In this document: positions 1-20,900 of the stretch, in pieces
Numbering within the stretch: the stretch's first letter is position 1
Layout of the letters: every line of letters begins with the position of its first letter
DNA from: Craspedostauros australis
Taxonomy: Eukaryota
NCBI GenBank assembly: GCA_030167865.1
Contig: JALAGF010006348.1
Coordinates: forward strand, 1 to 42,821
Length of the DNA: 42,821 bases
Direction of reading: 5' to 3'
Notes under the pieces: model-generated
The model's input: only the letters and a program-made list of their open reading frames with translations
Databases searched by the model: none
What the model was told of the DNA's origin: nothing
Program-made: the position numbers and the translations under genes

Positions 1-1
1 C

Positions 2-1585
2 TTGCTGCGCAGCGCCAAGATGCTGCTGGATATCAAGTCGTTCCTGAAGAAGAACACGAACGAGCAGATCATGTCCTTGCCGCTCATGACAGATCCGGGT
101 CAGATCTACAGCATGAGGATCGGCACCGACTTCGGCATTCGCTCCAACCTCATCCGCAAGGTGGTTCCGTACCTCTTCAATCTGTTCAGGACGATTCAGT
201 GTACCATTCGGTACGGCATCACCGAAGACGCGGCACCTGCTTTCGGGGCCTATGGTGTCATGATGGCCATGACAGGAGACCAAGCGATGGCACAACGCTG
301 TGCCGATCTTGCAACCGCAGTCATTGATAAAACCAACGGAAAGTCGAAGAGCGCGATTGTTTCCATCATCAGGACCAACTTCATCTCATCGTTCAACTCT
401 CCTTACCTAGACTTGATGCGAGAATGTCGGAAGGGGCATCACGATTCGATGGAAGTTGGGGAGTTCGAGATGGGCATCGTGAACTACCAGACCTCCGTCA
501 TGCTGGGTCTTCAGATTGGATGCTCGTTGCCCACTTTGATCAAGGCGACGCAAAGAGTGCGTCAAAAAATCGACATCCATCAAGTTCGTTCCTTGAGCAA
601 CATGGCCAGGGGCATGCATCTGCTGTTCACGTGGTTGACTGGTGATGAGCCGATTCCATGGCAAGATTTCGAGGCTGAAGCCGCACGAGGTCTCGACAAA
701 GAGTCATTGGATCCATCTGCAGTTATCGCAGATACGATGGACTTATATGCCCGAGAGTGGATCTTGATTCACCATCGGCGGTATGAAACTGCGGAACGAC
801 TCTACGATCCCTTTAATTACTTCGCTTCGAGAGATAGAGCTTACCTGATGGTTATGGCCTCACCCTTCTTTGCAGGCCTGATCGCGGCGGGAAGGTACAG
901 AGAGACAGGACGCCGCCGCCATCTGGCAACCCTGCGCAAGTCCATCAAGACCCTCCGCAACATCGGCAAGACCAGAGGAAGGAACTGGATTCACAAGGCA
1001 TTCTTGCTCGAGGCTGAAAAGCGCTCGATCACTATCAAGAACAAGCGCCATTCCAGAATCCAGAACGCGTACAACCTGGCGATCGTCACCGCCGCGCAAT
1101 CTATGTGCGTCCATGATGTAGCTCTCGCCTGTGAGCTGGCAGGCGAGCACTATGCTCAGAACGATGCCCCAGACCTGGTCAGCGACTACTTCGACAACGC
1201 TGTTGATCACTACACAGCATGGGGATGCAAGACCAAGGTGGATGACATCAAGGAACGACGTGGCCAATTCGTCACCACTCGGTACCGACATGGAAACCTC
1301 AACCCGAAGCTGGCGGAATGGACCCGCCGCAACCGCAAGCTCGATGAGCTGTATGGGATTGCATCGCCTGCGAATCTCTCTGGATTCGAGATCATACCGA
1401 AACCCGGTCCAGCCGACATGCGTTCTAGAAACAGTACGCGCAAGGGAATCGATGGCTGCACTCACGCCACAGGCTCCAAGACGTACAAGACAGACGCATT
1501 GTCCGAGGATGGCGAGGCAGAGTACGACTATGATGACATGGACGAGCACGATGACGATGTCTCGGTGCTAACGTACGGTTCTTGA
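2..1585 (+). CDS. C-terminal part (5' end outside the window) of a STAND/AAA-ATPase-associated helical-repeat protein, resembling the region upstream of GAF in bacterial multi-sensor Ser/Thr-AAA-His kinases; family expanded in diatoms
   Basis: ORF open from the window edge, 527 aa. Motifs recognised from this family: 'IMSLPLMTDP', 'TIRYGITEDAAPAFGAYG', 'NWIHKAFLLEAEK', 'AYNLAI..A', 'HDVALACELAGEHY', 'AVDHYTAWGCKTKV'. Ends in an acidic tail with no GAF or His-kinase domain. Confidence 0.75.
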   Translation: MLRSAKMLLDIKSFLKKNTNEQIMSLPLMTDPGQIYSMRIGTDFGIRSNLIRKVVPYLFNLFRTIQCTIRYGITEDAAPAFGAYGVMMAMTGDQAMAQRCADLATAVIDKTNGKSKSAIVSIIRTNFISSFNSPYLDLMRECRKGHHDSMEVGEFEMGIVNYQTSVMLGLQIGCSLPTLIKATQRVRQKIDIHQVRSLSNMARGMHLLFTWLTGDEPIPWQDFEAEAARGLDKESLDPSAVIADTMDLYAREWILIHHRRYETAERLYDPFNYFASRDRAYLMVMASPFFAGLIAAGRYRETGRRRHLATLRKSIKTLRNIGKTRGRNWIHKAFLLEAEKRSITIKNKRHSRIQNAYNLAIVTAAQSMCVHDVALACELAGEHYAQNDAPDLVSDYFDNAVDHYTAWGCKTKVDDIKERRGQFVTTRYRHGNLNPKLAEWTRRNRKLDELYGIASPANLSGFEIIPKPGPADMRSRNSTRKGIDGCTHATGSKTYKTDALSEDGEAEYDYDDMDEHDDDVSVLTYGS

Positions 1586-1951
1586 GAGCGATCTCGAGAC
1601 AGCCCGAGCAACCGAAGTGCTCGTACGAGTATGCTGCTGGCAACAATGAGCACGTTGTGACATCATCACATGCGCACAAGCGTAATTATCATTGGGCTGA
1701 GCTTTCTGTTCCACTATCGAAAGTCTGGCAACAATTTGCAAACAACAAAGCCATGCAAAATGTAATAGCATTGTACAGCAACATGTATAATCCGGTATCT
1801 GTTTCTCGAGTATTGTGGCCGCATAGTACCATTGTTTTGCTTTCACTATTTGTACACACAACCCCTACTCTACATCCACGTAATTGTATCGAGCCGGCAT
1901 CCTCCCTTCTGCGTCAAAAAGAAACGTCCGTTCATCGGATTCGGCGACCGT

Positions 1952-3760
1952 TCATGAGAAGATCATCGGATCATCACCATCCACATCATCGCTGTAGGGA
2001 TGTGTCAGCCGCATACCGTCGTCGTCGTCGTCATCATTATCATCCTGCAGCTCCTCATTCAAGGCCTGTTGGAAATCATCGTGCCTCGAGTCCAACAGGA
2101 TGACGGGCGCTTCGTGATATTCCACTTCGGCAACGCCACCAAAGAGCGTGTACCAGTTCCACCAGGCATAGAGCGTCTGGATGAGGAGTTCAACGACGAG
2201 CAGCCCCCATGTGCCGTCGCCGCGACCGCGGATGTCCCCGAAGAAGCCGCCGCCATTGGTAGACAAGGCCACAGCGTTGATGCCCCAGACCAGGATGGCG
2301 AAGAGGTGCAGGACGAACTTCTCCATGCCGCGGCTGGCGTGCTCCTTGCCCATGACGCGGTGAGAGCAGTTGAATTTGATCAAGGGCGTCAAGGCGAAGG
2401 GGAGGAGGAAGGAGAGGGAGGCGTTGACGATGTTGACCATGGCGTTGAGGTTCTTGGGGAAGAGGATGCTGACTATGACGCAGGGCGTGATGGCGATGAA
2501 TCGCGTGATGATCGCACGCCATTGCACGGGAATTTGCATCTGCAGGAATCCGTCCATGACGTACTGTCCCGTGTAGGTCGTGGTGATGGCGCTGGATTGG
2601 CCCGCCGCCAGCAGCGCGATGCCCCACAGGATACAACCGCCCTTGATGGTGGTGAAGTAATCGCAAAAGTTGGTGAGGCCCACCGTGTCGCCGGCGTCCT
2701 CGACGAAGCCGTAGACGGACTCGGCTGCGATGGCGACGACGGCCATGTTGACGAAGAAGCTGACGAGGATGGGCACGACGGGTTCCCACGACGAGTAGAG
2801 CACGGCCTGGTTGACTGCCGACGGCGCCACGGGACGTGCCTGCACTGCTGCCGTGTGGAGGTAGAGGTTGTGCGGCATGACGACGGCACCCAGAATGCCG
2901 GCGATCGCAAAGATGTCCGAGGAGTTGACCTCGGTGAAGCCGAAGAACCAGCCATCCACGACCTCCTTGATGTCGGGCTTGACCATGGCCATCTCAATCC
3001 ACAGCGCGATGCTCATGATCCCCACAAAGCCAAAGATGATGCGTTCGAGGATGTGGACGCCGAGGTTCATGGTCGCCAAGAAGATCATGGTGGTGACGAG
3101 GCTGAGGAGGACGCCGACGTAATACGGCCAACCGAAGAAGGCGTTGCAGGCAATTCCAATTCCGATGACCTCCGGCAGATCCGTCACGATGGTCGAGAGC
3201 TCCGCGACCGCCCAATTGAAGTAGCGCAGATTCCGAAAGAAGGTGGGGTTGTGATGCTCCTGTCTCTCATGCTCCTTTGACTGGGCTTGCGCCAGATTGC
3301 AGTTGCCGTAGTAGGCGAGACGAACGCAGAGGACCTGGACGTAAATCGAGAGCAGGGAGGTCCACCAGATGGCAAAGAGGAGGTAGTAGCGCGTGGTGGA
3401 ACCCGCCTGGATGTCGGCCTGGTAGTTGCCCGGATCGACGTACGCGATGCTGACGAACCAGCCGGGCCCCACAAAGTACCAGAAGTCCTTCCAGGACCAC
3501 CACGAGAGCGGATCGGTGTTGCTGGGCTTCCATTGCCTTCGAATTCCTCCGGCGCCTGTGATTTCCGTGGCCGTGGCGGTTGTTGTGCTGGGTGTATCGG
3601 CATCCGCAGGGTCGCCACGCAGATCATCATGGTGATGAGTGGGATGCGGATGGAAGTCGTCGTCATTGGTGTGCTCGAGGCCATCGATGAAGCTCTCCAC
3701 CTCCAGAGGAGGCGCCGAAGTGCGCTGCTGGCCTTTGCTGTCCGCTGCTTCCGGCGTCAT
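1952..3760 (-). CDS. NRAMP: NRAMP/MntH family divalent metal (Mn2+/Fe2+) transporter, intronless
   Basis: Signature motifs 'SIAYVDPGNYQADIQAG' (TM1), 'GAVVMPHNLYLH' (TM6) and 'AAGQSSAITTTYTGQYVMDGFL'; multiple hydrophobic helices. First ATG of the ORF is at 3760 (the ORF track starts at a GTG at 3829). Confidence 0.96.
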   Translation of the reverse strand: MTPEAADSKGQQRTSAPPLEVESFIDGLEHTNDDDFHPHPTHHHDDLRGDPADADTPSTTTATATEITGAGGIRRQWKPSNTDPLSWWSWKDFWYFVGPGWFVSIAYVDPGNYQADIQAGSTTRYYLLFAIWWTSLLSIYVQVLCVRLAYYGNCNLAQAQSKEHERQEHHNPTFFRNLRYFNWAVAELSTIVTDLPEVIGIGIACNAFFGWPYYVGVLLSLVTTMIFLATMNLGVHILERIIFGFVGIMSIALWIEMAMVKPDIKEVVDGWFFGFTEVNSSDIFAIAGILGAVVMPHNLYLHTAAVQARPVAPSAVNQAVLYSSWEPVVPILVSFFVNMAVVAIAAESVYGFVEDAGDTVGLTNFCDYFTTIKGGCILWGIALLAAGQSSAITTTYTGQYVMDGFLQMQIPVQWRAIITRFIAITPCVIVSILFPKNLNAMVNIVNASLSFLLPFALTPLIKFNCSHRVMGKEHASRGMEKFVLHLFAILVWGINAVALSTNGGGFFGDIRGRGDGTWGLLVVELLIQTLYAWWNWYTLFGGVAEVEYHEAPVILLDSRHDDFQQALNEELQDDNDDDDDDGMRLTHPYSDDVDGDDPMIFS

Positions 3761-4190
3761 GGTCGATCTTATTCTGGAGTCGGGTACTGTACTGTATTGC
3801 ACGACTATTACTCGTACGAGTGCTTGCACGTGAAGGCCTGGGAACGGTGACCTTTGTGCTCTGCTCTCTCCACGAGTATGAACGAGTACAATAGAATAGA
3901 ATATGAACGAGTATAATATGAATGAGAGGGCAGCCGGTGGGATGGATCAACTTGACGCTGCGTTGGTTCGGCCTGTCCTCCAGAACAGCGAATTCGTGGA
4001 AATGGATCTTCTTGTGGAGGTGATGGGGACAGCCGGGACGGAAATGAGTGGCGGCCGCGGCGATGGACGGTTTCGTTCTTTCTGCGTCTCTCGGCGAGAT
4101 CGTTGTGGCATCATGCGAGAGAAGTGGAGGGACCATGTTTCGTTGCGTCTTGTCATGTCTTGTTGCGTGGTGTCAAGCACAAGGGAGAGC

Positions 4191-4222
4191 AAGGGAAAAC
4201 GGCGTTTTTTTGTAAATGCGAC
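4191..4222 (+). repeat. Left terminal inverted repeat (with 2 flanking A)
   Basis: AAGGGAAAACGGCGTTTTTTT-GTAAATGCGAC: first 21 nt are the exact reverse complement of 13589-13609; 29 of 32 match 13578-13609. Confidence 0.9.
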
Positions 4223-5674
4223 TTAGAAAGAATAGAAAGTGGGTCCATTGTTGCTATTTTCCATATTTCCCTGCAGTTCGTTGGAATCAGCCATTTCGCA
4301 GGTTCTGCTGTAGCTTTCCTTGTGTATTTGCGACTTCCCTTCGACTCGGGACAACCAGTCCATCATCCATTGCGACTTCGTCCTTGGCTCGCATCCGCAC
4401 TTCACGACGGTCCTCCCTGTAGCAACTAATAATACTCCAGCCTACCATACTGACAATGCAAGTTGCTTCTCTCTTTCTCCCCATGCATGCTGTGTACAGC
4501 TCTTTTTCTGTTGTTGTTGTACCATATAGACTATAATCCATAACCATGTGCTGCAGCTGCTTTCGTACCGCCTCGTTTATTCCACATAAGCCATTTAGTG
4601 TGAACGGATAACGTTGGCAGGTCTTGCCTTACCATGTGGTTGCATGCAACTGTGTATGCCGGTACATATACAATGCACATGCAGGAGACACGTGTGGCGG
4701 CACCAGCTGCCCTTGCAGTGACTCCTGCGAGGCGTGCTGGGTGTGTGGTCACACTGGAGGATGTTGGGTGCAGATGGTGCATGGTGCAGCTATGCTGGAT
4801 GCTCTGGAGAAACTGTGGCCTCCGTATGCGGCTTGCCATGTGTCACAGCTAGCAGTCACTCTGCTCTCCTTGGCTGGGTTCCTGGTAGGTGCTGACCAAG
4901 CTTACACAGGGTGGGAATGCATAGATCTTCGAGGCAGCTCTACAAAGGCTTAGCAATCGGCATCCATGCTCTGTGGCGTGATGCCACGCTTGCCTTCTTT
5001 GTGGGGCTTGTGATTTCGGCTCGATCACTATTGTAGTGCCACCTGCTACAGTTTGTGAGTCACTCTGGCTTGCCAGTGGAAGGGTTTCTGGCGTTCCGAT
5101 GACCCAGTAGGGTTGGGACCGTGCTTTCTCCACTCCACCAACCATGCAGTCCATATCAGGCCGTCCCAGCCCAATCCTTGCCAAGACTCCTTGATGGCAT
5201 CGGTTGATATGCAGTTGCTGCCTTCTGGCGTAGTGTTGGCTTGCTTCAGGATGCAGAGAGGTTTGACAAGATGCTCGGCCCAATCTCCACGGACCTTGAT
5301 GGCCGGATGATGTGTCAGACTTGTTCGATGCAGGAGTCCAAAACTACCTGGTATTATGCATGGTTGTTGTTCTTATGTCATACAAGCTGCTTCTTCTTGT
5401 TCTTCCATGTGTTTGTCAACAACACAATCATGATTGCATACAAAGTGCTTCATGCCACTGTTGCTTCTCCTCTTCCTTGTCCTTGTCCTTGTCTTTACCT
5501 TTCGAGACCAGAATCATTCCTCCAGACCACCTTGGTTCGTCCTTGGATACGTTCTCGGTTGGTGCAGCCAACTGTAGTTTGTTTCCAGCAATTACAGTGA
5601 CAAATAGATTGAACAGTGCTTGTTGTTTCTATTCTAAAGCATCGTAGTTTCTTGCATGTGGTTATTGTTTATTC

Positions 5675-6755
5675 CTACGGTTCCACCAGAGAATCCAACC
5701 AATCATCCATCTCTTGGATGATCCCCACCGTTCGGGTGAGGTTAAACAGCTGATTCGTTTGTTTCAGTTCCAATTGCGTGATTGCAGCAACCATGTACAT
5801 TGCATACTGGTGCTTATCCAAACAGTGCCGCCATTTTTGCTTCAGGCACTTCCAGTTCTTGAACCTTTTATGTACAGCTTCATGGCATGCACGAATCATG
5901 CCATTGCATTGCATGCAATCCAAGCAGCAGTTAGGCTCACCTCTGTAACCTCAGTCCGCAACAACCTTCTTGGAAGAATCCAATGAATGTAGGAGCTTCT
6001 CTCAATAAATTCTGATGTCCGGCCACTGCCCACATGGATACGGTCCATCCACCCACACAAGGTGCCCTTTTGCAATGGAAATGCAAGCTTTGTAGCCGAG
6101 ACCCACAGCTTGGAATTTGTGGGAATACCAGCCTGGGTCATACAATGTAGGCTCTATGATGGAGAAGTCCGTGCCATCTACAGATGCCATGTTTGATGCT
6201 TCTTGTGCACATTCCATTTTCCAATCTTCAAAGCATATCTGGGATAGGATCAACACCTGGCAACATTGGAAAAGACAGAGATTGTGCGAGATACAGCATG
6301 TGGTTCATCAATTCCATTGTGTATGTTGCAGTCTGGCTGTTGATGTACTAACGTCATGCCACTTACAAGTTCACGGCTGAGGAGTCCCAATGCACAAAGA
6401 AAAATTTGTGTCCACTTCCGTACAGTTTTCACATCCTTTCCCATTTGTCCTGCCAGCACTCCCCATGTTGGATATTGTTTCAGAACATTAGAGTGCACAG
6501 CAGGTGCTCCATTGTTGCATTACAAGGCAGTAAGTCCTTCTCATTCAGTCCGTCCCATGCCATTGCCACCACTTTTGTGTGTGTTCCAAGGTTGCTTCGG
6601 ACACATGTTTGCACACTATCTGATGGTGAAGGCTGGAGTCCAGGATCAATTGCTTGTCCCAGAAGATCCATGCCCATGCATGCAATGGTTGTCTCTGTAG
6701 TCTCCAATGCCATTCTGATGTATCTTGGTATACCAACAGGATGGAGGACAAACAT
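5675..6755 (-). pseudogene. DDE-superfamily (DDE_Tnp_4 / Harbinger-IS5-like) transposase pseudogene with N-terminal HTH and one predicted intron (6239-6366)
   Basis: Reconstructed: HTH 'LLCTLMF/LKQYPTWGVLAGQMGKDVKTVRKW' (1-nt frameshift near 6483); intron GTAAGT..CCCAG; catalytic core 'ASVDGTDF..EP....GWYSHKF..GL.Y', 'WVDGPYPCGQWPDIRIY*', 'VVAD*GYRGE', 'RACHEAVHKRFKNWKCL...WRH'. In-frame TGA stops at 6002-6004 and 5951-5953. Exact start uncertain. Confidence 0.9.
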
Positions 6756-7089
6756 GTGACACCTACCAGTGAAACATCCATTTCAGCAACAGAGAGAGTA
6801 AAACAAACAGGGCAAGCGCTGCTATGGTTGATTTGTTCTGAACACACAATACCATGCACAATTTAGCATGTTGTTTGGCTCGTTTCCCTTTGCTGTCCGT
6901 GTCAGTTTGAACTGGCACAAAACGACCTGCATACACAGACACAGAGGAGGATTGGACATGTTGTGATTGATTGTGCCCGTGCAATTCTGTACGTGGGTCG
7001 CATGTCTGTGCAGTATTGCTGAAACAAACCAGGTATGGAGTCATGGCACACAGGGTCAATCAATCATACTGAGTAGTCACATGTGCAAC

Positions 7090-8180
7090 ATCAACAAGTA
7101 CGGACAGACAGGCTAAATCGTAACAAACCAAAACTACCGGTACACACAGACACGGACAAAGAGCAGGAGGACTGTGTCTGATGGTGTGCGATCGACGTTG
7201 TTGTTATCGTGCGTGTCATGTCTGTCATGTAGACCAAAACGGTCGCAACAAACAGGGCTGATCGTACCGACCTGTCAGACGCGCGGCATCAGCAAACACA
7301 GACAGACAGGCTACATCACAACGAACCAAAAAGACTAGTACACACGGACACGGACACGGACACGGACACGGACACGGACACGGAAACAGACGAAGATCAG
7401 GAGGACCGTGTCTGATGGTGTGCGATCGATGTTGCGCGAGCGATGGTTTTGTTTCGTGCGTGTCGTGTCTGTCGTGTAGACCAGTACCGTCGCAACAAAC
7501 AGGGGTGATCGTACCGAGTTGTCAGGAGCCCAACATCAGCAAGCACAGACAGCCTAAATCGTAACGGACGAAAGAGACCGGCACACACAGACTGATGGCA
7601 CGCGTTCAATGTTGCGCGCGTGATGTTGTTGTTATCGTGCGTGTCGTGTCGTGTCTGTCATGTCCGTGCAGCACCGTCGCAACAAGCAAGGCTTTTTGTA
7701 CCGAGTTGTCAGAAGCGCAACATCGGCAAGCACAGACAGCCGAAACCGTAACGAACGAATAGGACTGGCACACACAGACACAGACGAGGACCGTGTCTGA
7801 TGGTACGCGTCCGATGTTGTTGTTATCGTGCGTGTCGTTTCGTGTCTGTCATGTCCGTGCAGTACCGTCGCAACAAACAGGGGGCTTATCGAACCGAGTT
7901 GTCAGACGTGCAACATCAGCAAGCACAGACAGCCGAAACCGTAACGAACCAAAAAGACTGGCACACGCAGACACAGACGAGGACCGTGTTTGATGGCATG
8001 CGTTCAATGTTGTTGTTATCGCGTGTGTCGTTTCGTGTCTGTCGTGTCCGTGCAGTACCGTCGCAACAAGCAAGGCTTATCGTACCGAGTTGTCAGACGC
8101 GCAACATCAGCAAGGCACAGACAAGCTAAATCGTAACGAACGAAAAAGACCCAACACACACAGACACGGACGAAGACCGG
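7090..8180. repeat. Tandem array A, about 5.5 diverged units of ~190-235 bp
   Basis: Anchor GAGGACCGTGTCTGATGG (or variants) recurs near 7167, 7401, 7590 (partial), 7786, 7979 and 8170; each unit also carries CGTCGCAACAA, TACCGAGTTGTCAG and CATCAGCAAGCACAGAC. Confidence 0.92.
7343..7385 (+). repeat. (CACGGA)n microsatellite inside array A
   Basis: About 7 consecutive CACGGA hexamers read directly. Confidence 0.9.
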
Positions 8181-8739
8181 GAGTGCTTTGTCGTGCAAAT
8201 TTCGGCTGTGACTGTTTCACTCGGACATTTGCACCGCTTTTTCCATCTCACCCTCGAATCGTGGAACATGTTCTCATTTGTGCCTTTTTTTCTGCGTTGG
8301 CCACACCGAAACAGTGTTTCCACTGCGTCGCCTTTGGCGCATTCGCCCAACATGTTGGTCGGTTTGCACGTACGCTGCAGTTTTGAACCGTTTGCGCCCC
8401 AAGGCGCGATGTGCCACGGATGTCATTGTGGTTGTTGCAGTTCCGAATAAGCAGTTTCAGAATGAACGGTTCAAGCAGCAACATTCGGGCATTTGTTAGC
8501 CCCTTTCTATACCGATTAATGTGATTTGGAGACTAATTAATGCCTTCATGTTCATCTTGACAAAAAACAGCATTACTTAGACCCATTATTGTCGCTTGTT
8601 GTGCGGCTTGTGACAATATCAGCGCTATCAACGTCATGGAAAGTGTCATTTTGGACCAAAATGTCGCCTTTTGGGGTCTCGGTGGCGCTATTTAGTGTGT
8701 GATGTAGTGCGACATGGTTGCGACCATTCCAACTAGGGC

Positions 8740-10010
8740 GTGTTCGACAACACGAACGGACTGTCCGATCCCGCCAGGTCTTTTTACGACATTCCAAGTC
8801 ACTGGCGAACACTGCTGAGGAATGTGACATTGCGATTCGCTCGGTTTCGACTCACCAAGTGGTATTCGACTGTACTGGCAAATTGTCCGATACTGCCTGG
8901 TCTGTTCGCAACATTCCAAGTCACCGGCAAACACCGCTGTGGAATGCGAAGTTGCGCTTTGCTCGTTCTCCACTCTACAGGTTGTATTCGACCGTACCGG
9001 CAAATTGTTCGATACTGCCTGGTCTGTTCGCAACATTCCAAGTCACCAGCAAACACTGCTGTGGAATGCGACATTGCAATTTGCTCGTTCTCGACTCCAC
9101 AGGTTGTATTCGGCCATACCGGCCAATTGTCCGATACTGCCTGGTCTGTTCGCAACATTTCAAGTCACCGGCAAACACTGCTGCAGGATGCGACATTGCA
9201 ATTTGCTCGTTCTCGACTCCACAGGTTGTATTCGGCCGTACCGGCAAATTGTCCGATACTACCTGGTCTGTTCGCGACGTTCCGTGCCATTCGCACCCAA
9301 TACTACAGGATGCGACATTGCAATTTGCTCGTTCTCGACTCCACAGGTTGTATTCGGCCATACCAGCTAATTGTCCGATACTGCATGGTCTGTTCGCAAC
9401 ATTTCAAGTCACCGGCAAACACTGCTGCAGGATGAGACATTGCAATTTGCTCGTTCTTGACTCACCAGGTCATATTCGACCACACCAGCCAATTGGCCAA
9501 TACTGCATGATCGGTTTGCAACGTTCCGTGCCATTCACACCCAATACTCCAGGATGCGACATTGCAATTTGCTCGTTCTTGAATCACCAGGTTGTATTCG
9601 ACCACTCTAATAGATTTTCCGATACTACATGGTCTGTTTGCGACATTCCGTGCCATTCACACCCAATGCTGCAGGATGCGACATTGCGATTTGCTCGTTC
9701 TTGACTCACCAGGTTGTATTCGACCACTCCAATAGATTTTCCAATACNNNNNNNNNNNNNNNNNNNNNNNNNNNNNNNNNNNNNNNNNNNNNNNNNNACT
9801 CACCAACCTACTGCACTACCACGGATTGATCACCCTTCGGCGTACAGTAAGTTACCCTCGTTTTCTATATCGTTCTATCAATGCTGCAGGATGCGACATT
9901 GCGATTTGCTCGTTCTTGACTCACCAGGTTGTATTCGACCACTCCAATAGATTTTCCAATACTTCATGGTCTGTTGGCGACATTCCAAGTCATTCACCAC
10001 CAATGGTTTG
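8740..10010. repeat. Tandem array B, 122-bp period, at least 9 units, interrupted by an assembly gap
   Basis: The CCGATAC anchor (or variant) occurs at 8765, 8887, 9009, 9131, 9253, 9375, 9497, 9619 and 9741 (exact 122-bp steps), and again after the gap near 9956. Confidence 0.95.
9748..9797. other. Assembly gap (50 N)
   Basis: Run of 50 N inside array B. Confidence 1.
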
Positions 10011-10324
10011 GAGTGCGAAGTTGCGATGCATTGGGGCCAGCTTCTATTGGTCCACATAGCCACATGGGAAGGTATTGGCATTGTGGCAGAACTCAAGACC
10101 GTGCTGGTTTGTTTTTNCATGAGGTAAGAATGGGAGAAACCAAACACCCTGCACCAGCGTACCTGTATGGACCATGACGCCTACAGAGAGAGAAGTGTTC
10201 GAAAATGACAGCAACATCCGCATCATCAACCCAAATGTCCACATGTTCCGCCCAAAACAAATCAAGTTTGCCATACAATAAAAAATGCAACACTCACACG
10301 CACATCCACACATCAACCCATCAA

Positions 10325-10415
10325 CACATTTGCACATTAGTACATCAGCACATTGGTACATCAGCACATTGATACATCAGCACATTGGTGCATCAACACT
10401 TGTGCACATTGGCAC
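10325..10415 (+). repeat. Short minisatellite, ~16-bp unit TACATCAGCACATTGG, 4-5 imperfect copies
   Basis: tacatcagcacattgg-tacatcagcacattga-tacatcagcacattgg-tgcatcaacacttg read directly from 10341. Confidence 0.8.
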
Positions 10416-10499
10416 ATCCACACGTCCACGCATCCACGCATCAACACATCAACACATAGAACCAACAATTCAACAGCACAACATTGCAGACACTCCACA

Positions 10500-13247
10500 A
10501 TGGTGGGCTCCGATGACCATTTTTACAAGAATGGGCCTGATGCCGCTGAACTCGTGAAGGCATTTTTGGCTGATCCCACAAAATGGCACTGAGAGGCAGC
10601 GCCTTTGCATCTGCAGCATTCGTTCTTACTCAAGTACGATGCAAAGAAGTTTGTTCGGACCCTACGCAAGTTCAAACGGATATTGGTGAAGAAGGGTTTG
10701 TTTCACCGTAAGTACTGCATGCCCAGCCACATAATCAAAGCTCCATCATGAACTCGTCTGCTTGTATTCAGGTGCCTTCTCATCTCTTTTTCTCTTTCCT
10801 ATGACTCCAACATATGACCTTCATCTCTTCATCATCCAATCCAGAGGATGGCAAGCGGAACGAGATCTCAACCCATAGGCTTGGTGCCACCATCTGTCCT
10901 TTGGATGAACTGGCAGTCAATGATGCTGAGTTGGCAACCTCCAATCATGATACCAACACTGCAACCAGTTCTAACACCACCAACAGCCACACCAACAGCA
11001 CCAGGAGCGGAACCAACAGGAATGGCACCAACAGACGAATGACACGTGGCAGCATGTATGAAGCATCAAATGAAGGTGACACTGTCCCCTATTGGAACCG
11101 ATGACACAGATGAGAGCAGCAGCAGCGCATGGGATAGGTATGACAAAGCATTGGACAACATTGATGACACTGATTCTGACAATGACATTGCGTACCTTGG
11201 CACTACCAACAAACCAGGCTCAAGCAGATTTACAACCACCCCTTATGGCCCTATCCCTGCAAGATTGGCCACATTTTTTAGGTATCGGAGTCCAAATGAG
11301 TTGCAAGGTTTCATTAGCAGAGTCGAACCATTGAGGTCTTCCACAAACCCAGGTGTGGAGACCTCATGGTGAAAGGTATTGCATGGTTGTGGTGGATTTT
11401 CATATGCCTTCATGCACAGCCAGGAATGATGCTATGGTCACCATCGAAAGTCGGAAAGTGGATGGAGTACATTGGATGTTCCTGATGTTGCTCTGCAAAC
11501 CACCAGTCGCTTTCGGTCATGGCAGAAGCATTTTCGACATGCCCATTGACAAGTTGGGACATCCATTCTCAGACTCAGGCCAGAAACGTTCTGCCCATAT
11601 GCAACAGTTTTGGAATGAAGACTTCACAGAGTCGTTTCGATCCGACATGCTGGTACCGATGCCATTTCCAATTGACACCATCTTCTGTGACACACCATGC
11701 TGAAGATTGGGAGGAGTGGTCTGGCTTCGTCATGTTGTGAGGGATAATGATGGTGCCACCCACAACATCCTTACAATATTGGTACGTTTGAAGGAAGCAA
11801 CCAATGTTGGTGTGACCCAGCACTTCTCTGTATGCCATGTTCTGGGCTTTACAGATGGTGATGGAAGCCATCAGGATCGCAATACAGAAGCAACGAACAC
11901 ATCCAACTGAAGCACGAACATTGCCACCCACAACATCAACAACACCATGACGAGCACAAGGAACACGACTGTCGGAACCACAGCTGCCATGGCTGGCAAC
12001 AGCATGATGCCCTCAACACCCCCAACCCACAATCGACCTAGGAGGTCGCCGCTCCATGCCAGCAGGGGACAGTCTGCACAACAGCAACGGACAACTACCA
12101 TTGGCAATGCAGCCAAGGCTGCATGGCCAACAAGCCATGCCCACAGTTTCTGTAATCAGTCATCAGACAGCAACCCTGACTGCCACTGAAGACTTCATGT
12201 CAGTCTTGATGGACAGTACCAACTAATGAGAGATCGCATTGAAATACAGAGGGCAATGTTTGAGATGATGGAGTCTCAGCTGGCTCTCAAGGTTGAGGCA
12301 AAGCACGCAAACAAGGCATGGGAGGACACCTTGCAACAGAGATCCAGATTGTTTGGAGATGTCAATGAAGAAATCCAAGCAATGAGGAAGCCCCACCTTG
12401 CAAAAGAAGTGCCCCTGGCAGGTGTCCCTGAAGTCAATGTTGACGTCTCCCCAAATGGCAACAAATGGTGAGAGCACAAGGAGATCTCCCTCGATGCAGC
12501 GTTGGTTGATGTTGCTGGCCAGTCGGCATGCAGATCAGCTTGTCAAGGTCCCGTGGCAACAGTTGTGGTAGGTGTGGGAGCTGGTTCAGACCAGTACATG
12601 CACCAACGCCCTAACATGGATGAAAGAAGCCGGAGAAGTTGCATTCTCCCATCATCTCAATGGATCCTACCACCCAGGCAGTTGATGCCCATCACAGGAC
12701 ACAAACAGAGACGCAGACAATGCCACCACCATGATCACCAGCAGGAGCATTGGTGGAAGGCTCAGACATTGGAAGAGTAAGGGCACAGACAGAGGGGACA
12801 GCAGCAGCGGGGTCACCTGTACGGATCCTACCAGCCCAGGCAGTTGACACCCATCACAGAACACAAACAGAGACACGAACAGAGACGCAGGCAATGCCAT
12901 CACCACGATCACCAGTATCAACAACAGGAGCCAAAATATCTAGAATCNGGATGCCATCGCCAACTGCAACACTGGCATCAACTGCAGCGGTCCCTGAAGA
13001 TGATGCAAGAACAGGAGAGACAGCAGAAGGAAGTACGGAACAAGCACTGCAGCCTGCAGCAGCAGCACCAACAACAGCAGAAGAAGGTATGGAAGAACAA
13101 CAACCACAACACCAGCATGATGACAAAGAGAAAGAACCAGGAGAAGCTGCTACTACTGGGATGAGGACCTGGGGGAGGGCTGCACGACAGAGCCGCGGTG
13201 ATGCAAGTAAACCACATCAGCAAGGCAAACGAGCATACCATAAATAG
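10500..13247 (+). pseudogene. Decayed large second ORF of the transposon, unknown function
   Basis: ATG at 10500 (MVGSDDHF...), candidate intron GTAAGT 10708..CAG 10771. ORF-track fragments starting 11353, 11707, 11947, 12226 and 12502 are all in one frame, separated only by TGA stops (11701, 11908, 12187, 12469). Includes a globular-looking segment, a coiled-coil-like stretch (RDRIEIQRAMFEMMESQLALKVEAK) and low-complexity tails. Boundaries approximate. Confidence 0.6.
12662..12915 (+). repeat. Internal direct duplication (~80-90 bp core, 161-bp spacing) within the second ORF
   Basis: GGATCCTACCA(G)CCCAGGCAGTTGA...CACAAACAGAGAC...CAATGCCA.CACCA.GATCACCAG at 12662 and 12823. Confidence 0.85.
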
Positions 13248-13577
13248 TGGAGTCAGAATGTGCAACTTTTGATTGTTGTAACTAGATGAATCCTGCTGAT
13301 GGAATGCAACAAGCCAACTGGCAAGAGAGTTGGAACAACATCCGCAACCCCCCTTCGAAGAGAGGGGAACATGCTGGCTCTGCGGCTGTCGAATGTGTGG
13401 AATCGCATGGAGAGGTGAAGGATCTGTGGACCAGAATGAAAAAAGCCAAAAAACAACAAGATGCAGTCCGTGCACAACCCGATAATGAGCAAAAAAGCCA
13501 CAAGTTGTTTTGGAAAATACGCAAGAATTTTTCGCCATTTGGTGGCCCGCATCCCTTTTCGACTTTCGTTTTGCTTC

Positions 13578-13609
13578 GTCGCAATTTGAAAAAAACGCCG
13601 TTTTCCCTT
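13578..13609 (-). repeat. Right terminal inverted repeat (with 2 flanking T)
   Basis: GTCGCAATTTG-AAAAAAACGCCGTTTTCCCTT, reverse complement of 4191-4222 with 3 mismatches. Confidence 0.9.
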
Positions 13610-14463
13610 CCCCTCCAAGGCGGATCACCAACAACGGCCTGTTCTGGCTGTTCGCGTTCATCGTTGTGACGCGTGTTGAACTCGTGTTGATTGCCGCGTG
13701 TCGTTGATTCGGATTGACCTGATTGAGTCGAGTTTGTCGAACGGCGACTTCCAAGTCCCATTTCTCACTCCTCTCTTCAACTCTACACTCGTTTGAGGTT
13801 ACCACTGTTGATTCTACTGGTACGTACCATACTCGTCCCTTTGGCAACAACGCGCCATGCTCCATGCCTGCACATACTCACGTTTTCCGAACGACTTTCC
13901 AAAGTCTCGCCGTTCCTCTCCAAAGCGCACAAGGTCACCACCGAGAGACGTAACGATTGGATCTTTCCCTTCATTGACCTCAGGTTATAGGGTGAGAGCA
14001 GCAGAGCCAATCGCCGTGGGTCGTGTCCATGACCTTGATGTGCCACCATTGCGATGACAAACCACCATGAACAACGCATCGAACCGCCCAACAGTCTACG
14101 AGTTTTGTCCGACACAGTTCGGTACATGTCATGGATGAAGCAACTCGTGAATGGATGTTCGTTTTCGAGTCGTGCTTCTTTCCGCAGAGGTCTGTGGATC
14201 CTTTGTGCGGAGACAGCCACCACCATTGCGAACGCGAACCAACACAGAGGGGGCGTCGTCCGAACCAAGTCAAAGTACGAGAACTCGTACGACTACTCGC
14301 GCAAGTGGAGCAACACAAGATGACACTCCCATTCCTCGCCGTCCCTTGACGACAGGCTTGCCAAAACCGCACAACACAATACTCCACTCCAGAGAGATAA
14401 GGACTGTCGCAGTCATACTATAATATTATATAAGAGTGATCACAATCACGCACAAGCAATATC

Positions 14464-16343
14464 ATGACGACGAAAGCAACGGTTGATGTGGCCGGCATCG
14501 TCGAGCCGATGATCGAGGTCCATCGATCAGGCATCAACCAAACCTACGAATGGAGAAAGGAACAGCTCAAACGCATGAAGGACATGATCGCGTCCAACCA
14601 GAAAGCCATGCAGGAGGCGCTTTCCGCCGACCTCGGTCGTTGCGATGAGGAATCCTGCCTCGCCGAGATCTTCCAAATCCTGCCGCAGATCGATCTCTTC
14701 CTCGCCAATCTGCGACGATGGATGAAGCCGAAGAAGATGCCATCCTCGTTTCTCCTCTTTCCAGGATTCTCTCAGTGCCAGTACAAACCACTGCGAAAAC
14801 CCGCCGTCTGCATCATCGGTGCCTTCAACTACGCATTCCTCACGTGCTTGCAGCCCGCCATCGGCGCACTGGCGGCGGGCAATCCCATCGTCATCAAACC
14901 CAGCGAATTGTGCCCAGCATCGGCGCAGCTGATGCACGATCTCGTCGCCAAGTACTTCCCGCCCGACGTGGCGCGCGTCGTGACGGGTGGTGTGCCCGAA
15001 ACACAGGCTCTGTTGGCGCAACCGTGGGGCAAGATCGTCTTCACGGGATCGGAACGTGTGGGCCGTCTCGTGGCGGCGGCCGCGGCCAAGACGCTGACGC
15101 CCGTGTTGCTGGAGCTGGGTGGCAAGTGTCCGACCTACGTCGATGAGAATATTCCGTCGCACATGCTGGACAACGTGGCCGATCGCATCGTCTTCACGAA
15201 GCTCTTCAACTGCGGACAGACTTGCGTGGCTCCAGGTAAGTGGTGGATACTCGTGCATGGTGCTTGTAGTTGCAGACGATTGCATGTGCCACGTGCGGTG
15301 GTGCATGCATCTATCGTGTTGATACGCGCTATACAAGTATGTCAATCTGATTCCTTTGAATTGAATCGGAACTGCTCAGATTCAATCAAATTCCACGCCT
15401 CAACAACGCAATGTATCGTAATGCAACATAACGCAAGCTCATCCATTCATATGCTCGTTTCTCACCTACGAGCACGCTCCTCGTCGTCACCATCATCGCC
15501 ACTGATCATGCAGATACCCTCATTGTCCATGCAAAGCACGTTAAGGATCTGAGCCGATCGATCGTTCGGGCCGTCCAAGAGCAATTCAGCAAAGATCCCT
15601 CCCAGTCGACAATGAGCAGAATCGTAAGCAAGGCCCACACGCAGCGACTGATCGACTATCTCAAGGAAGTGGAAAGCTTGCAGTCGGAGCATCCAGACAC
15701 AGAAGTCATTTTTGGAGGAGCTGCGACATGCAATCTCGAGGACAAATACGTCTGTCCGACCTTCGTACTGAATCCACCATCTGAATGCAGGCTGCTGAAG
15801 GAAGAAATATTTGGTCCCATCCTTCCCATCGTCGTTGTGCCGTCCCGAACGGCAGCAATTGATTTCATCCAGAACAAACTCAGAGGAACGCCATTGGCAC
15901 TGTACATCTTCACTTCCACATCCAAAGTCTTTGACATCATGACGACTGCGTGTCCCTCGGCAGCAGCCGTCCGCAACGACGCCATGATCCATCTCAGCAA
16001 TCCACACCTGCCGTTGGGTGGATTGGATACGAGCGGAATGGGCCAGTATCAAGGACTGGCCTCGTTCGAAAGTTTCTCGCACACTTTTCCAACGGTCTAC
16101 CGACCGCTCGGCACTTGGCTGGCCGATTTGAACAACGTTAGATGCCAGCCGTACAGTGCCTGGAAGGTGGTTATCTTGCAACTCGCTGCCTCGATCCCCG
16201 ACATTCCCGTCATGCCGTGGAATGCATTTGCAGCTATCGGGGTGCTCGGGTTTGCAACAGCATCGTCCAGCGGCGTTGCCGTTTGGGCCAGGAATGCCGC
16301 TGCGGATGGTCTGGATCTGATGTCGGCGTACTTGCGATCGTAA
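14464..16343 (+). CDS. ALDH3: Aldehyde dehydrogenase, ALDH3 / fatty aldehyde dehydrogenase type; exons 14464-15235 and 15514-16343 (533 aa)
   Basis: Motifs 'AGNPIVIKPSE', 'FTGSERVG', 'LELGGKCP' (catalytic Glu), 'NCGQTCVAP' (catalytic Cys), 'EEIFGPILP', 'PLALYIFT', 'LPLGG...SGMGQYQG'. The GTAAGT..GCAG intron (15236-15513) restores 'CVAPD-TLIVH' in frame. Hydrophobic C-terminal tail suggests a membrane anchor. Confidence 0.93.
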
Positions 16344-17936
16344 CATGATCTGGATGACCACAGAGTGTTATTGGGCGAAGGCAGAGGCACAGGAACCTTT
16401 TGGACAGACCATGGTTGAGGTATGGGGCGCAAGTGCTGTCACAGAGCGGTGCATGGTAGCCAGGCATGGCTGCTAAGCACGGCAGCTGAGTATCGTGCGA
16501 CTCCAGTCGAGGGAAATGCTCGTCGTCGTGATGATCGGGGACAAAGAGCACGAGCAGTTGCGAGAAGTAACAAAGTGGAATGAGAGGGATCGCCTCCTTC
16601 CTTTCTCCCTCCGATGTTCATATCTCCAACGCAGCCCTCTCCGCTCTGTGACACTTTATCCTTGTATGTTCGATTCATGCCCAGGCCTGTTGATACGCAC
16701 AAACATCTACTCTTCGAGGCAGCGGCGGAAAAGGAAGTGGCGACGGAGCGTTTATCATCGCTTCGTTTCGTTTCCACCTCTTGCGTATCAACGCCAGCGA
16801 TCAACACTCCGGTTGCCATCATCGAATGATGTCACAACAAAACGCACAAGGGAGTGCGAAACAGTAGACACTCTTTGCGATCTGCGCAACGCTTCATGAA
16901 ATTTCGAGCTACGCGCAGGAGTACGCGTACCCACAACTTCTCATCATGTCTTGTTGCTGTGCTGGCGCCTCTCGAAAGTATTATGAGATGTTGATTTTTT
17001 GAAAACACGAAGGACGAATTCGGCTTGGTCTACGATCAAGTGAGACATGAACAGAATGTCGCTGGTGACGCTGTTTTTAATGAATTGAATCGCGAACAGA
17101 TGTGCACAATGTCGAACCAAGACTGTGATTGAATCATTGACATTCTCACAAAATGAAGCTGCGAAGTACGCCCACAGACAGAAACAAGGGCCTCTGAGTA
17201 CGAAAACAGCTCGCTTCTCGCAAGGTGTAACATCATGACATCAATGATACGATTATACCACCAAAGGCAAGGCTCTAAGCGTGTTCTCGGAGATTCGCCG
17301 CCTTCTGTTGTTGTTGTTGTCGTTGCCGTTTCGTTGCCACCGCAGTTCGTTGGTTGTTGGTTGTTGATTTGCGAATTGTGTCTGTGCAGAGGGCACAGCA
17401 AAAGCGTCGGTGATCGTTTCGGATGCAGAGGGGGCAAGGGCAGCGGCGTCTTCCACTTGTCTCCCCTGACAATGGTGACGGCATGGGACAAAGGCCAACA
17501 AACTCCGAAACCTCTCCCTCTTTCTTTCCATTCACTCTCCTGCCTGCAGCACGCCCACGGCTCGCACTTGCTTGTTCACTCCGACGTAGGTGACCGCCGG
17601 CACAACAAGTCCTTGCTGTTGCACTTGCCGTTGAAGTTGCTGACACCAACGAACCCCACAACTCGCCACGTCGGAAGGAAGCGGAGAGACAAACCACGCA
17701 TAGTACACTCCATAGCAAGTGAGCAACGGCACATCGGCGCATCGTTCTCCTGATCTCGTCCTCACAACTCAGAGGGTCCACAAACTTTCATTATCCACAC
17801 TCACAGAGACCGGCAAGGAGGAGGGTGAAAGGGAGCTGACAGCTGAGCTTTGCGACTTCATCCGCTTAGCACACAGAAAATCCGAAAGCAAACCTCGCGA
17901 CACCTTCAGTGATCAACGGCTCTGCTGTCGTCCAGC

Positions 17937-20900
17937 ATGCCGCTTCTGAATCGCACCCGCCCGACCTCCGAAAAGCAACAAAGCAGTGCCAACCTCCCCG
18001 ACCTGTGCTCGACCGACAGCGAGGGAGAATCTTCCAGTTCGGAGACTGCGCTGCATGCACAGCACGTACAGAGACAAGGCATGAAGAATGGCGGAAGCAG
18101 AAACAGAATTGGCGGTATCCCATGCACGACGGATGCTATCGATGCGGCAACGTCTGCAACATCATCATCCAAAGAGTTCGGCGGGAGAAGACTATCACAG
18201 CGTTCCATCAGAACTTCGTCCCTTCGTACTACCGACTCCGACAGCGCTCGTAACCCAGACAACCAAAGCGACGCTCATCAACACCCCTGTCCAGAGATTG
18301 GTAGCGAAGATGTCCCAGCCAGCTTCGCCACTGAGCATCGTGGGCATCGTGAGCGTGGGCATCGTGAGCATGGTCACCATGGTCAGCGACGGCGACCAGC
18401 TTTAGCTTCGATGCTCTCGCCTCTGTCCACCACAAGGCACTCCGAATCTCACAAATCGCCGCAATCTGATTGTACACAACTTACTTCCAACACTGGTAGA
18501 AAACCAAGCCTTGTCCTGAGTGAAGAGAACAACACTGAATCAGCCTCCAAGTCTCCATCGGGTAATCGGAAATGTAACGCAAGCATGATGAGCTTTGCGT
18601 CCACGATACACTCGTCCGCAATTACGGAAGTACCTTCCTTGGCAAGCACGACCACAGCCGACAATGACTCTACTTCAACGACAGAGCCGATAGAGGCTCT
18701 CCATGAGTCACTGACGCGATCTGCAACAACACAGCCACAACCATCGCCATTGGCAGTGCTATCGCCATCGCATCCGTCCACTCCCAAGACGAGAAATCAT
18801 CCAACACCATCTTCGCTTGTGAACGATACCCAAGACATTCCTCCGCCTCCGATCGATGTCTATCACACGCCAAAACAAAAAAGGAGAAAGCGAAGAACGC
18901 AGAGAAAAGTGCCAACGCAATCGAAAGGCAAGGACTCGGCATCACTGTTGTCTTCACCGCCGCCGCCGCCGTCCACATGCCAGCCAACGCCAATATCATT
19001 AGCATCGTCAGCAGCATCAGCATCAGTTCATTCAGTTTTACTCACACCAACCATCGGGCATCGTGTTCGGCAGCTGAGACAAGAGATGGAGAGCATGAGC
19101 TCCATCTTGAGCTCACCAATGACACCGAGCATGTCCGACAGTCTCTCCAGCATTAACTTCTCGTTGCGCATCAGACCAGCGGCGAATCAACGGCAACATC
19201 AACAGCAATCACCAGCATTGCATAGACGTTGTGAAGGCTCGTATCAGACAATGTCCTCCGAGACCTCTTCCAACGTTCGGAAAGAGAAGGTCGATGCCCA
19301 CTCTTCCCTTGGTGCTTCTGCCTTCCTTCACTTCAGTAACACCTCACCGTCCCATACCATCACCACGAACAGCAACAGCCAGGACAAGATCATGATCAAC
19401 CGCACCGACACCGACACCGACGCCACCACCAACCAAAGCACCCAGAGCAAGAGCAAAAGCAATAGTCAGAGCATCAATGTGAGTGGCGATGGTGTCTATA
19501 TCAGCAAAAGACACAGAGCAGCTTTCAACCACAAGCTGTTGCAAAAGTCGAAGTCCACCATGCACCTGTCCCAAAGCATCGATACTGAAACTACAACTGC
19601 AACCGGGGACGCCTTAGGTAGCCCATGTCTGAGACGTTCCAAGTCAAAAGTGGAGGGTGAGATCCAAAGATTCCTTCAACAGGAACTTTACCGCAGTAAG
19701 TCCTCAAGTCAGCTCTCTGACATCAAGCGAGCATCTGCCAAGGCAAGTGGGTCAAAAGTCAAACATACCGAAGCAGGTTTGGACAAGGCCAAGCAAGACA
19801 AGCACAGAAGCAAGGGCACCGGCAAGAAGTCCAAACGCAACATGTCTACATCAAAGAAGGAAAAAAGCACGAGAGTAGCCGCAGATGGAAGTGTAGCCGT
19901 GACTGCACGCCACCATGAGCAACGGCAGGAAAGCTGCCGACAGATCTCTGGAAAAGAGAGCAAAGTCAGAGATGACCGACAGGAAAAGGGGAAGCGTAAG
20001 CGCAAGGTGAAAGATGAAAAGTCATCCCAACGTGGCCGATCGTCCGCGAAGATGCGCGATCATCGACACGGCAAGCGAAGAGACAGCGTCCACGTGAACC
20101 AAGAGAAGAGTACTAAACAAAGGAAAGCAGATGTTGTCGTGGTTCCTGAGCTAGATCAGCAGAAGGAGGAAGCAGAACCTGTTGGAGAGAGGGACGGCGA
20201 CGCCGGCTCCAAGGCACAACAACCGGATCGCACGCACCAGCAGCGATATTCCTGTCCCGCCGCATCCCAGTCTCGGAGTCTAAGCCCCGCAACCACGAAC
20301 CAACGTCTCGTCGCCTCCTTCAGCGGATTCAATCCAAACGCGTCCGTTGGTCTTCAGAAGCCCCTTGGCACGTTGCTACCCAAGCCAGGCACGAGTGTCC
20401 TCAACAAGAGCGCATCATTCTTGGATGCCATCGCTGCGCTCAAGCAAACATCTCCCGGCGGTGATGACAGTACCTGCGTTTCCTTCGCATCGTTCTCACG
20501 CAACCGAAGCTCATCGGGCTATGCATCCCAAAAGATCCGATCGAGTAGAACAAGGATGGAAATAAAACCGAGAAGCCCGAGCCCAAGCCCATTCTATTCC
20601 TCCATGGGAAAATGCGATTATACATCTGAAAGCGAGCCTTCGAAATTGGCGACGCCATCTCCCGTGCCACAACAGAATAGCCGTTTGGTCGAGGCGACAC
20701 CAACAGATCTAGGAGGCAAGCCCTCACCATCGGCACCGCAAGAGGAAAGAGACAAAGGCGAGGGCAGGCATCGCCGAGGTAGCCCCAACAAGACAAGATC
20801 GTTTCGAGACAGTCGTCGCAAGGAACCTGAATCATCACAGTCGTCGTCAGCATCATCAAGCGACATGATCTCCAAACGGCGTGCATCTGTGTTGGCTGGC

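Follow-up and report, generated by a model that had tools for sequence, protein, structure and literature searches.

Did a DNA transposon of the diatom Craspedostauros australis enter its site without duplicating any target bases, or does it carry a target-site duplication that lies further outward than its most conspicuous termini suggest? The element in question resides on contig JALAGF010006348.1 (NCBI GenBank assembly GCA_030167865.1), of which positions 1 to 42,821 of the forward strand were analyzed; this whole stretch of 42,821 nucleotides is subsequently designated the window. A preliminary description, made from the letters alone, had assigned the element to the PHIS group (PIF/Harbinger - ISL2EU - Spy) and had proposed that it was inserted bluntly between AA and TT, in a manner reminiscent of Spy elements, by the compact transposase of a diatom lineage. 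We instead favor, with a rough probability of 0.6, the reading that the element is an old, dead cut-and-paste copy of the PHIS superfamily, which has imperfect terminal repeats of 27-28 bp and is flanked by a duplication of 3 bp (or 5 bp).

Ends of the element and the flanking direct repeat

The element is bounded by a perfect 19-bp inverted repeat, GGGAAAACGGCGTTTTTTT, which is located at 4193-4211 on the plus strand and at 13589-13607 on the minus strand. Both termini open with GGGAAAAC, and the 12-mer GGGAAAACGGCG, representing the start of the 19-bp repeat, has exact matches in the 42,821-base window at these two ends only. Delimited at this inner boundary, at which the ends start with GGG, the element spans 4193-13607 (~9.4 kb). 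The left flank then ends with GAGAGCAA (4185-4192), the right flank starts with TTCCCCTC (13608-13615), and excision of 4193-13607 joins GCAA|TTCC, all of which agrees with the preliminary description. Directly at the GGG boundary, where the flanks read CAA and TTC, there is no direct repeat.

A repeat finder carried the inverted repeat further outward, to 4184 on the left and 13616 on the right, yielding a pair of 46 nt with 83% complementarity. The outer 9 bases, GGAGAGCAA on the left and GGAGGGGAA as reverse complement on the right, are complementary at 7 of 9 positions including the AA and TT, and the outermost four bases, GGAG, are the same at both ends. Weaker inverted similarity continues past the left core as far as 4229. 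The bases adjoining this extended repeat were covered by a boundary scan with outward offsets of up to 15. At offset 8, the scan detected a 5-bp direct repeat, CAAGG (4180-4184 and 13616-13620), and at offset 9 a 3-bp direct repeat, AAG (4181-4183 and 13617-13619). The earlier claim that direct repeats are missing from every nearby boundary is therefore incorrect. The features at the two ends are as follows.

4180..4184, no strand: left candidate target-site duplication CAAGG with core AAG at 4181-4183 (boundary scan, chance tests)
4184..4211, plus strand: left terminal inverted repeat, composed of the imperfect outer part 4184-4192 (GGAGAGCAA) and the perfect core 4193-4211 (repeat finder)
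13589..13616, minus strand: right terminal inverted repeat, composed of the perfect core 13589-13607 and the imperfect outer part 13608-13616 (GGAGGGGAA as reverse complement)
13616..13620, no strand: right candidate target-site duplication CAAGG with core AAG at 13617-13619 (boundary scan, chance tests)

Position 4184 can equally be assigned as the first base of the terminal repeat, and 13616 likewise as its last base. Since the first base of the terminal repeat is G and its last is C, duplications of 3 bp (AAG) and 5 bp (CAAGG) cannot be separated. Most likely, the real ends of the element are the 27-28-bp imperfect repeats GGAGAGCAAGGGAAAACGGCGTTTTTTT (left) and GGAGGGGAAGGGAAAACGGCGTTTTTTT (right), in which case the AA and TT would most likely constitute positions 8-9 of the terminal repeats. 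That the direct repeat represents a true target-site duplication, and by which mechanism it arose, we infer from this arrangement. The reading needs no special target to account for the direct repeat as well as for the complementarity of AA and TT.

Chance occurrence of the combined pattern was assessed with 20,000 flank pairs per null model, using a fixed criterion (direct repeat of 5 or more bases, offset by 4 or more, the bases in between being inverted-complementary to 75% or more) and a combined log-odds score; for the null model of contiguous sites only the fixed criterion was applied. Among random flank pairs from the window, the fixed criterion picked out 4 of 20,000, while 10 of 20,000 reached the log-odds score. 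Higher counts were obtained when the pairs were forced to end with AA and begin with TT (46/20,000 for the fixed criterion and 43/20,000 for the score), or when the real flanks were shuffled with AA/TT held fixed (19/20,000 and 28/20,000, respectively). Contiguous sites yielded 5 cases in 20,000. The combined pattern is hence uncommon under all four null models. The log-odds score was reached at none of the 67 real AATT sites that are present in the window outside the element.

Transposase pseudogene and its relatives

The transposase gene is located on the minus strand.

5675..6713, minus strand: transposase pseudogene of ~309 codons (Pfam, tblastn, alignment)

Its DDE exon (5678-6256, minus strand) is terminated by a TAG stop codon at 5675-5677. 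A putative GT..AG intron (6257-6366) separates this exon from the N-terminal part (6367-6713, minus strand), in which the frame changes near 6483; in tblastn, the N-terminal parts of 22 long representatives of the family mapped to 6707-6307. None of 10 separate open reading frame (ORF) pieces of the transposase region gave a significant Pfam match before the DDE exon was read as a whole. With X inserted at both in-frame TGA codons, the exon matched DDE_Tnp_4 with 30.0 bits (cutoff 24.8). In the DDE exon, the two TGAs fall on residues 84 and 102. A reading of TGA as sense codon was rejected, because each TGA is one C-to-T change away from CGA, the gene is strongly CpG-depleted, and the residues aligned with the two codons in relatives are R/K and G/D/R/L, respectively. 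Decay accounts for both codons.

The DDE exon matched 11 metagenome-derived proteins (out of 22 candidates) with 34-44% identity. Residues D27, K47, D80, D101, R122 and E126 are invariant in all 12 aligned sequences, i.e. the window copy and its 11 relatives, and are spaced in the window as D27-(19)-K47-(32)-D80-(20)-D101 ... R122-(3)-E126; the window copy is short of ~10 residues that the relatives possess between D101 and E126. The catalytic core thereby reproduces the D..K..D..D..R(3)E signature of the superfamily, whose pattern across PHIS is given as D..K..D..D..P..R(3)E in PMC4122938. Together with the Pfam match, this upholds the assignment to the PHIS group with a DDE_Tnp_4-type transposase.

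A profile search of 1.84 billion representatives recovered 6,693 with E <= 0.001, of which 752 had E <= 1e-30. Full-length matches are ~300-330 aa long, and their DDE core is located in the C-terminal half, confirming that the transposase is compact. Canonical Harbinger transposases are usually larger and score much higher with DDE_Tnp_4. When 15 long representatives were analyzed with Pfam, DDE_Tnp_4 was detected in 6 (5 of them above cutoff), DDE_Tnp_1 only in one, and nothing in 8; a recognizable N-terminal domain was found in 0/15. Of the proposed combination of a helix-turn-helix (HTH) with a DDE domain, the DDE part stands; the N-terminal HTH is limited to a weak hint (HTH_36, E = 0.22). 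A word-indexed search for longer or fused relatives returned 128 candidates, none of them significant; the NCBIfam IS5 models gave sub-threshold matches only, and no relative of solved structure was found at E <= 1.

Among Atlas clusters, those nearest to a homologue are eukaryotic, with Bacillariophyta as the commonest phylum, the phylum being recorded for one member per cluster. Judged by these sequence relationships, the element belongs to a diatom-associated clade with compact transposases of ~300-330 aa. The preliminary view of a diatom lineage is borne out to this extent, with the reservation that the window copy itself is a pseudogene.

Decay and integrity of the copy

Two in-frame TGAs and a frameshift make the element an inactivated, pseudogene-bearing copy. 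The CpG observed/expected ratio is 0.68 for the whole element and 0.32 for the transposase gene, as compared to 1.02-1.05 in three large flanking blocks. In 1-kb windows covering the unique parts of the element, ratios of 0.45 and 0.32 (5-7 kb) and of 0.47, 0.45 and 0.32 (10-13 kb) were obtained, whereas the adjoining kilobases outside (1-4000 and 14001-19000) range from 0.96 to 1.19. The tandem arrays at 7-10 kb are undepleted (1.03-1.23), which suggests either that expansion or homogenization of the arrays (7001-10000) postdates the decay or that methylation does not reach them. The pattern fits an element that was methylated for long and silenced, in which the nonsense codons would have arisen by conversion of CGA to TGA. 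Elsewhere in the window, the ratio dips to 0.67 at 19001-20000, where the neighbors are at ~1.0; another decayed repeat is possible there.

The element harbors a gap of 50 Ns (9748-9797) as well as single Ns at 10117 and 12948. The preliminary description had named, as a condition that would overturn it, that the two ends belong to different insertions joined across the gap. Units of a 122-bp tandem array flanking the gap (9663-9747 and 9878-9962) are identical at 84 of 85 positions, which, together with the direct repeat linking both flanks, argues against this scenario. The CpG depletion of both unique halves, together with this near-identity across the gap, argues for both ends being derived from a single insertion.

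Further copies and a distant relative

Within the window, the element appears to be alone: of 53 blastn matches obtained with 4150-13650, none lies outside the element; tblastn with 12 proteins detected matches at 5678-6346 only; and the terminus, when up to two mismatches were allowed, had 3 further matches at chance level. A paralogous empty site was not found in the window, where only chance matches of 12-17 bases were returned. The analysis covers one copy of the family, and the only relative with DNA is a distant locus, L001, which was recovered by a scan of prokaryotic genome contigs and encodes a transposase with 22% identity.

L001 is a 3,766-bp contig from a short-read metagenome assembly, labelled as a metagenome-assembled genome of Bacteroidota (Ohtaekwangia). 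A PHIS-type element of 3.2 kb is present in full at positions 399-3601 of L001; its 32-bp terminal repeats share 94% identity, and its transposase of ~307 aa is intact (DDE_Tnp_4, 77 bits). A GTACGT...TTACAG intron interrupts the transposase gene immediately ahead of the I-x-F-E motif, at a position that coincides with one of two possible acceptor sites in the window gene. Because this intron is of spliceosomal type, the contig looks eukaryotic (fungus-like) and mis-binned. The terminal repeat of L001 contains AAGGGA....GGCGT 13 bases from its tip, which resembles AAGGGAAAACGGCGT of the window at 11 of 15 bases. This likeness hints that the AA in the window may reside inside the terminal repeat; 185 of 5,000 shuffles were equally similar, as were 119 of 3,000 random internal 32-mers.

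Comparison with known PHIS groups

Most described PHIS groups generate 2-3-bp duplications and have terminal repeats starting with GG, GGG or AG (PMC4482050). The window ends conform to such a G/A start at either boundary, with GGG at the inner and GGAG at the outer one.

PIF/Harbinger elements are characterized by a TWA duplication and a second ORF with Myb/SANT domain (PMC4482050/PMC4122938/PMC12730594). The window element shares with the canonical members DDE_Tnp_4, terminal repeats starting with G and, if the direct repeat is the duplication, its length of 3 bp. It differs by AAG in place of TWA, by a DDE_Tnp_4 match of 30 bits and by the second ORF, no Myb/SANT match having been obtained with 17 ORF translations of the element, where decay could mask one. 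ISL2EU elements, which duplicate AT within A|AT|T and possess a THAP-bearing transposase and a YqaJ second ORF (PMC4482050/PMC4122938/PMC12730594), have the PHIS-type DDE transposase and GG-starting terminal repeats in common with the window element. However, an AT repeat is missing at either window boundary, and THAP or YqaJ matches were not obtained.

Duplications of CWG and TA have been described for NuwaI and PHISTA, respectively (PMC4482050). In NuwaII, the target is C|TNA|G, for which 3 bp and 5 bp are undecidable (PMC4482050), the same ambiguity as with C|AAG|G in the window; NuwaII also resembles the window element in the DDE transposase, the GG-starting terminal repeats and the C on the left and G on the right flank. 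The differences are the triplet, TNA versus AAG, and the Myb/SANT second ORF, which was not found in the window. Pangu elements duplicate ANT and include families from the heterokont Ectocarpus (Pangu_ESil) and a red alga (PMC4482050). In Pangu/Harbinger2, as in the window, only the DDE domain is recognizable, the second ORF lacks a known motif where it is present, and the terminal repeats start with AG or GG; the transposases listed for Pangu mostly comprise 287-537 aa (PMC4482050; PMC12730594). The window triplet AAG departs from the ANT/AWT duplication of this group at the third base.

As for diatoms, Harbinger-like elements have been reported from Thalassiosira pseudonana (PMC2806351), and the diatom family Harbinger4_TP is reported to generate 3-bp duplications (PMC12730594). 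Phaeodactylum and Thalassiosira are named, in the passages covered of supplement 1 to the 2015 survey, solely among the genomes scanned, with no family from them (PMC4482050). The literature searched did not contain a description of target-site duplications for the diatom PHIS clade.

Weighing the modes of integration

Several points weigh against a duplication of AAG or CAAGG. Both the boundary and the test criteria were picked after the pattern was known. When the inverted-repeat condition is omitted, a 5-bp repeat at any offset of up to 15 occurs in 332-866 of 20,000 null pairs (1.7-4.3%), so that the direct repeat by itself is not convincing. Moreover, CAAGGGA is present twice in the left flank (4180 and 4190), and such local low complexity raises the chance of short repeats beyond what the shuffle model covers. 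The outer 9 bases hold two mismatches next to 19 perfect bases, and AAG is outside of the described PHIS targets TWA, ANT, CWG, TNA, AT and TA. Finally, and weakly, L001 is flanked by GAGAC and ATGTT, and the 15 bases next to either end hold no direct repeat, with the caveat that on a short-read contig of a repeat the two flanks may stem from different copies. Two of these points, the perfect 19-bp core beside imperfect outer bases and L001 without a visible duplication, also speak for the Spy-like blunt integration proposed initially, in which the element would comprise 4193-13607 with ends GGGAAAAC...GTTTTCCC, both joined at one phosphodiester position between AA and TT of an empty site GAGAGCAATTCCCCTC, and the outer complementarity and CAAGG would reflect chance or a palindromic target. 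Spy elements insert without duplication into AAA|TTT, have termini GGANNNNG and a D(79-80)D(44-62)E spacing, and are described from invertebrates only (PMC4122938); PHIS relatives with 0-bp duplications exist (PMC12730594). Like Spy, the window element has the PHIS-type DDE domain; no second ORF was detected in its decayed sequence, and the flanks at its GGG boundary are A-rich and then T-rich, resembling AAA|TTT, with no direct repeat at that boundary. Counting the terminal A and T of L001 as host bases would place that element at ...ACA|TAT.... Nevertheless, we consider blunt integration of the window element improbable. CAAGG combined with the outward inverted repeat would have to be the kind of coincidence encountered in 43 of 20,000 AA|TT-forced pairs and at none of the real AATT sites, and the target is GCAA|TTCC and not AAA|TTT. 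The terminus GGGAAAAC deviates from GGANNNNG at positions 3 and 8, while the outer-boundary termini GGAGAGCA and GGAGGGGA fit its GGA but not its final G. The catalytic spacing in the window and its 11 relatives is D(71-73)D(24-34)E, or D(50-52)D(45-55)E when D80 is counted, and hence unlike Spy by either count, the choice of D by the Spy authors being deduced from their pattern. A single copy does not allow AA and TT, being complementary, to be ascribed to the host, which is precisely why empty sites were required in the work on Spy (PMC4122938). Thus, with AA and TT inside the extended inverted repeat, a direct repeat adjoining it, and target, terminus and spacing all differing from Spy, the blunt integration at AA|TT put forward in the preliminary description is not supported. 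We regard as quite improbable the broader form of the idea, that a diatom-centered clade of compact PHIS elements integrates Spy-like at A|T without duplication, for which CAAGG would be a coincidence and L001 a second case; if true, integration with zero stagger would have originated or persisted in a lineage other than ISL2EU/Spy.

A further explanation retains the GGG...CCC ends and assumes that a conventional duplication next to them, e.g. TWA, was lost by point mutation or micro-deletion, or that the two flanks stem from different insertions as a result of recombination between copies or of scaffolding across the N gap. The copy is indeed old and decayed, as evident from its two nonsense codons, the frameshift and the CpG ratio of 0.32 in the transposase gene, and the gap inside the element is unsized. 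However, conversion of CAA/TTC to any 3-bp repeat takes three changes in six bases, while the adjoining 38 bases of the core repeats, including 4 CpGs, carry none. Unlinked flanks are at odds with the near-identity of the repeat units on either side of the gap and with CAAGG itself, which ties both flanks. We therefore regard this explanation as unlikely, and favor insertion with duplication of AAG or CAAGG adjoining the extended terminal repeats.

Interior and neighborhood of the element

Apart from the transposase pseudogene, the following features were annotated inside the element.

4217..4378, plus strand: three same-orientation copies of TGCGACTT at 4217, 4329 and 4371 (3 of the 5 window copies within 162 bp)
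6918..8180, no strand: tandem array of ~190-bp units (7455-8179 with period 193 and 3.8 copies according to Tandem Repeats Finder; weaker copies from 6918)
8762..10027, no strand: 122-bp tandem array, broken by the 50-N gap
10301..10457, no strand: microsatellite-like array with the 8-bp unit CACATCAA
11035..13260, plus strand: unique, CpG-depleted region whose long frame is almost open, with 10 stops in 742 codons

The copies of TGCGACTT may represent candidate subterminal binding motifs of the transposase. A perfect (ACACGG)x7 microsatellite is embedded at 7342-7384 in the array of ~190-bp units. The 122-bp unit contains ATGCGAC and TTGCAATTTG, which resemble subterminal AATGCGAC at the left end and GTCGCAATTTG at the right end; one might speculate from this resemblance that the array reiterates transposase-binding sites. 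Concerning a second ORF, none of the 17 ORF translations across the element reached the cutoff of a Pfam family, the weak matches being restricted to DUF7219 (E = 0.093) and MTP18 (E = 0.013). A 482-codon read-through in the region 11035-13260 had no homologue among 5,984 candidates and no usable Atlas match.

Two divergent ORFs border the element, one at 1955-3760 (minus strand) and the other from 14440 onward (plus strand); judging their translations by eye, we take them to encode an NRAMP-type transporter and an aldehyde dehydrogenase, respectively. In the host flank left of the element, a GT-rich 20-bp unit is present in 2.1 copies (4134-4175). The plus strand is GT-rich in both flanks, which fits former contiguity.

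Proposed history of the insertion and its meaning

According to the favored reading, the transposase would have bound the terminal repeats, and perhaps also the subterminal TGCGACTT motifs, before cutting the element out and linking its 3' ends, in a staggered manner, to the intergenic target ...CAC AAG GCG... between the divergent, putative NRAMP-type and aldehyde-dehydrogenase-type genes. Repair of the gaps would then have duplicated the staggered bases. Subsequently, the copy would have been silenced; it has decayed, as evident from CpG-to-TpG changes, nonsense codons and the frameshift, and expansion of the internal tandem arrays would have brought the element to 9.4 kb.

Integration without duplication is rare among eukaryotic DDE transposons. 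Its occurrence outside of animals, if true, would bear on how the stagger of the target strands is set in PHIS, but the present evidence does not support it. If the ordinary reading is true, the locus amounts to a further dead transposon of Harbinger type between genes of a diatom, which is useful for repeat annotation. At the same time, the element marks a large clade, the 6,693 representatives at E <= 0.001, which is only weakly detectable by Pfam.

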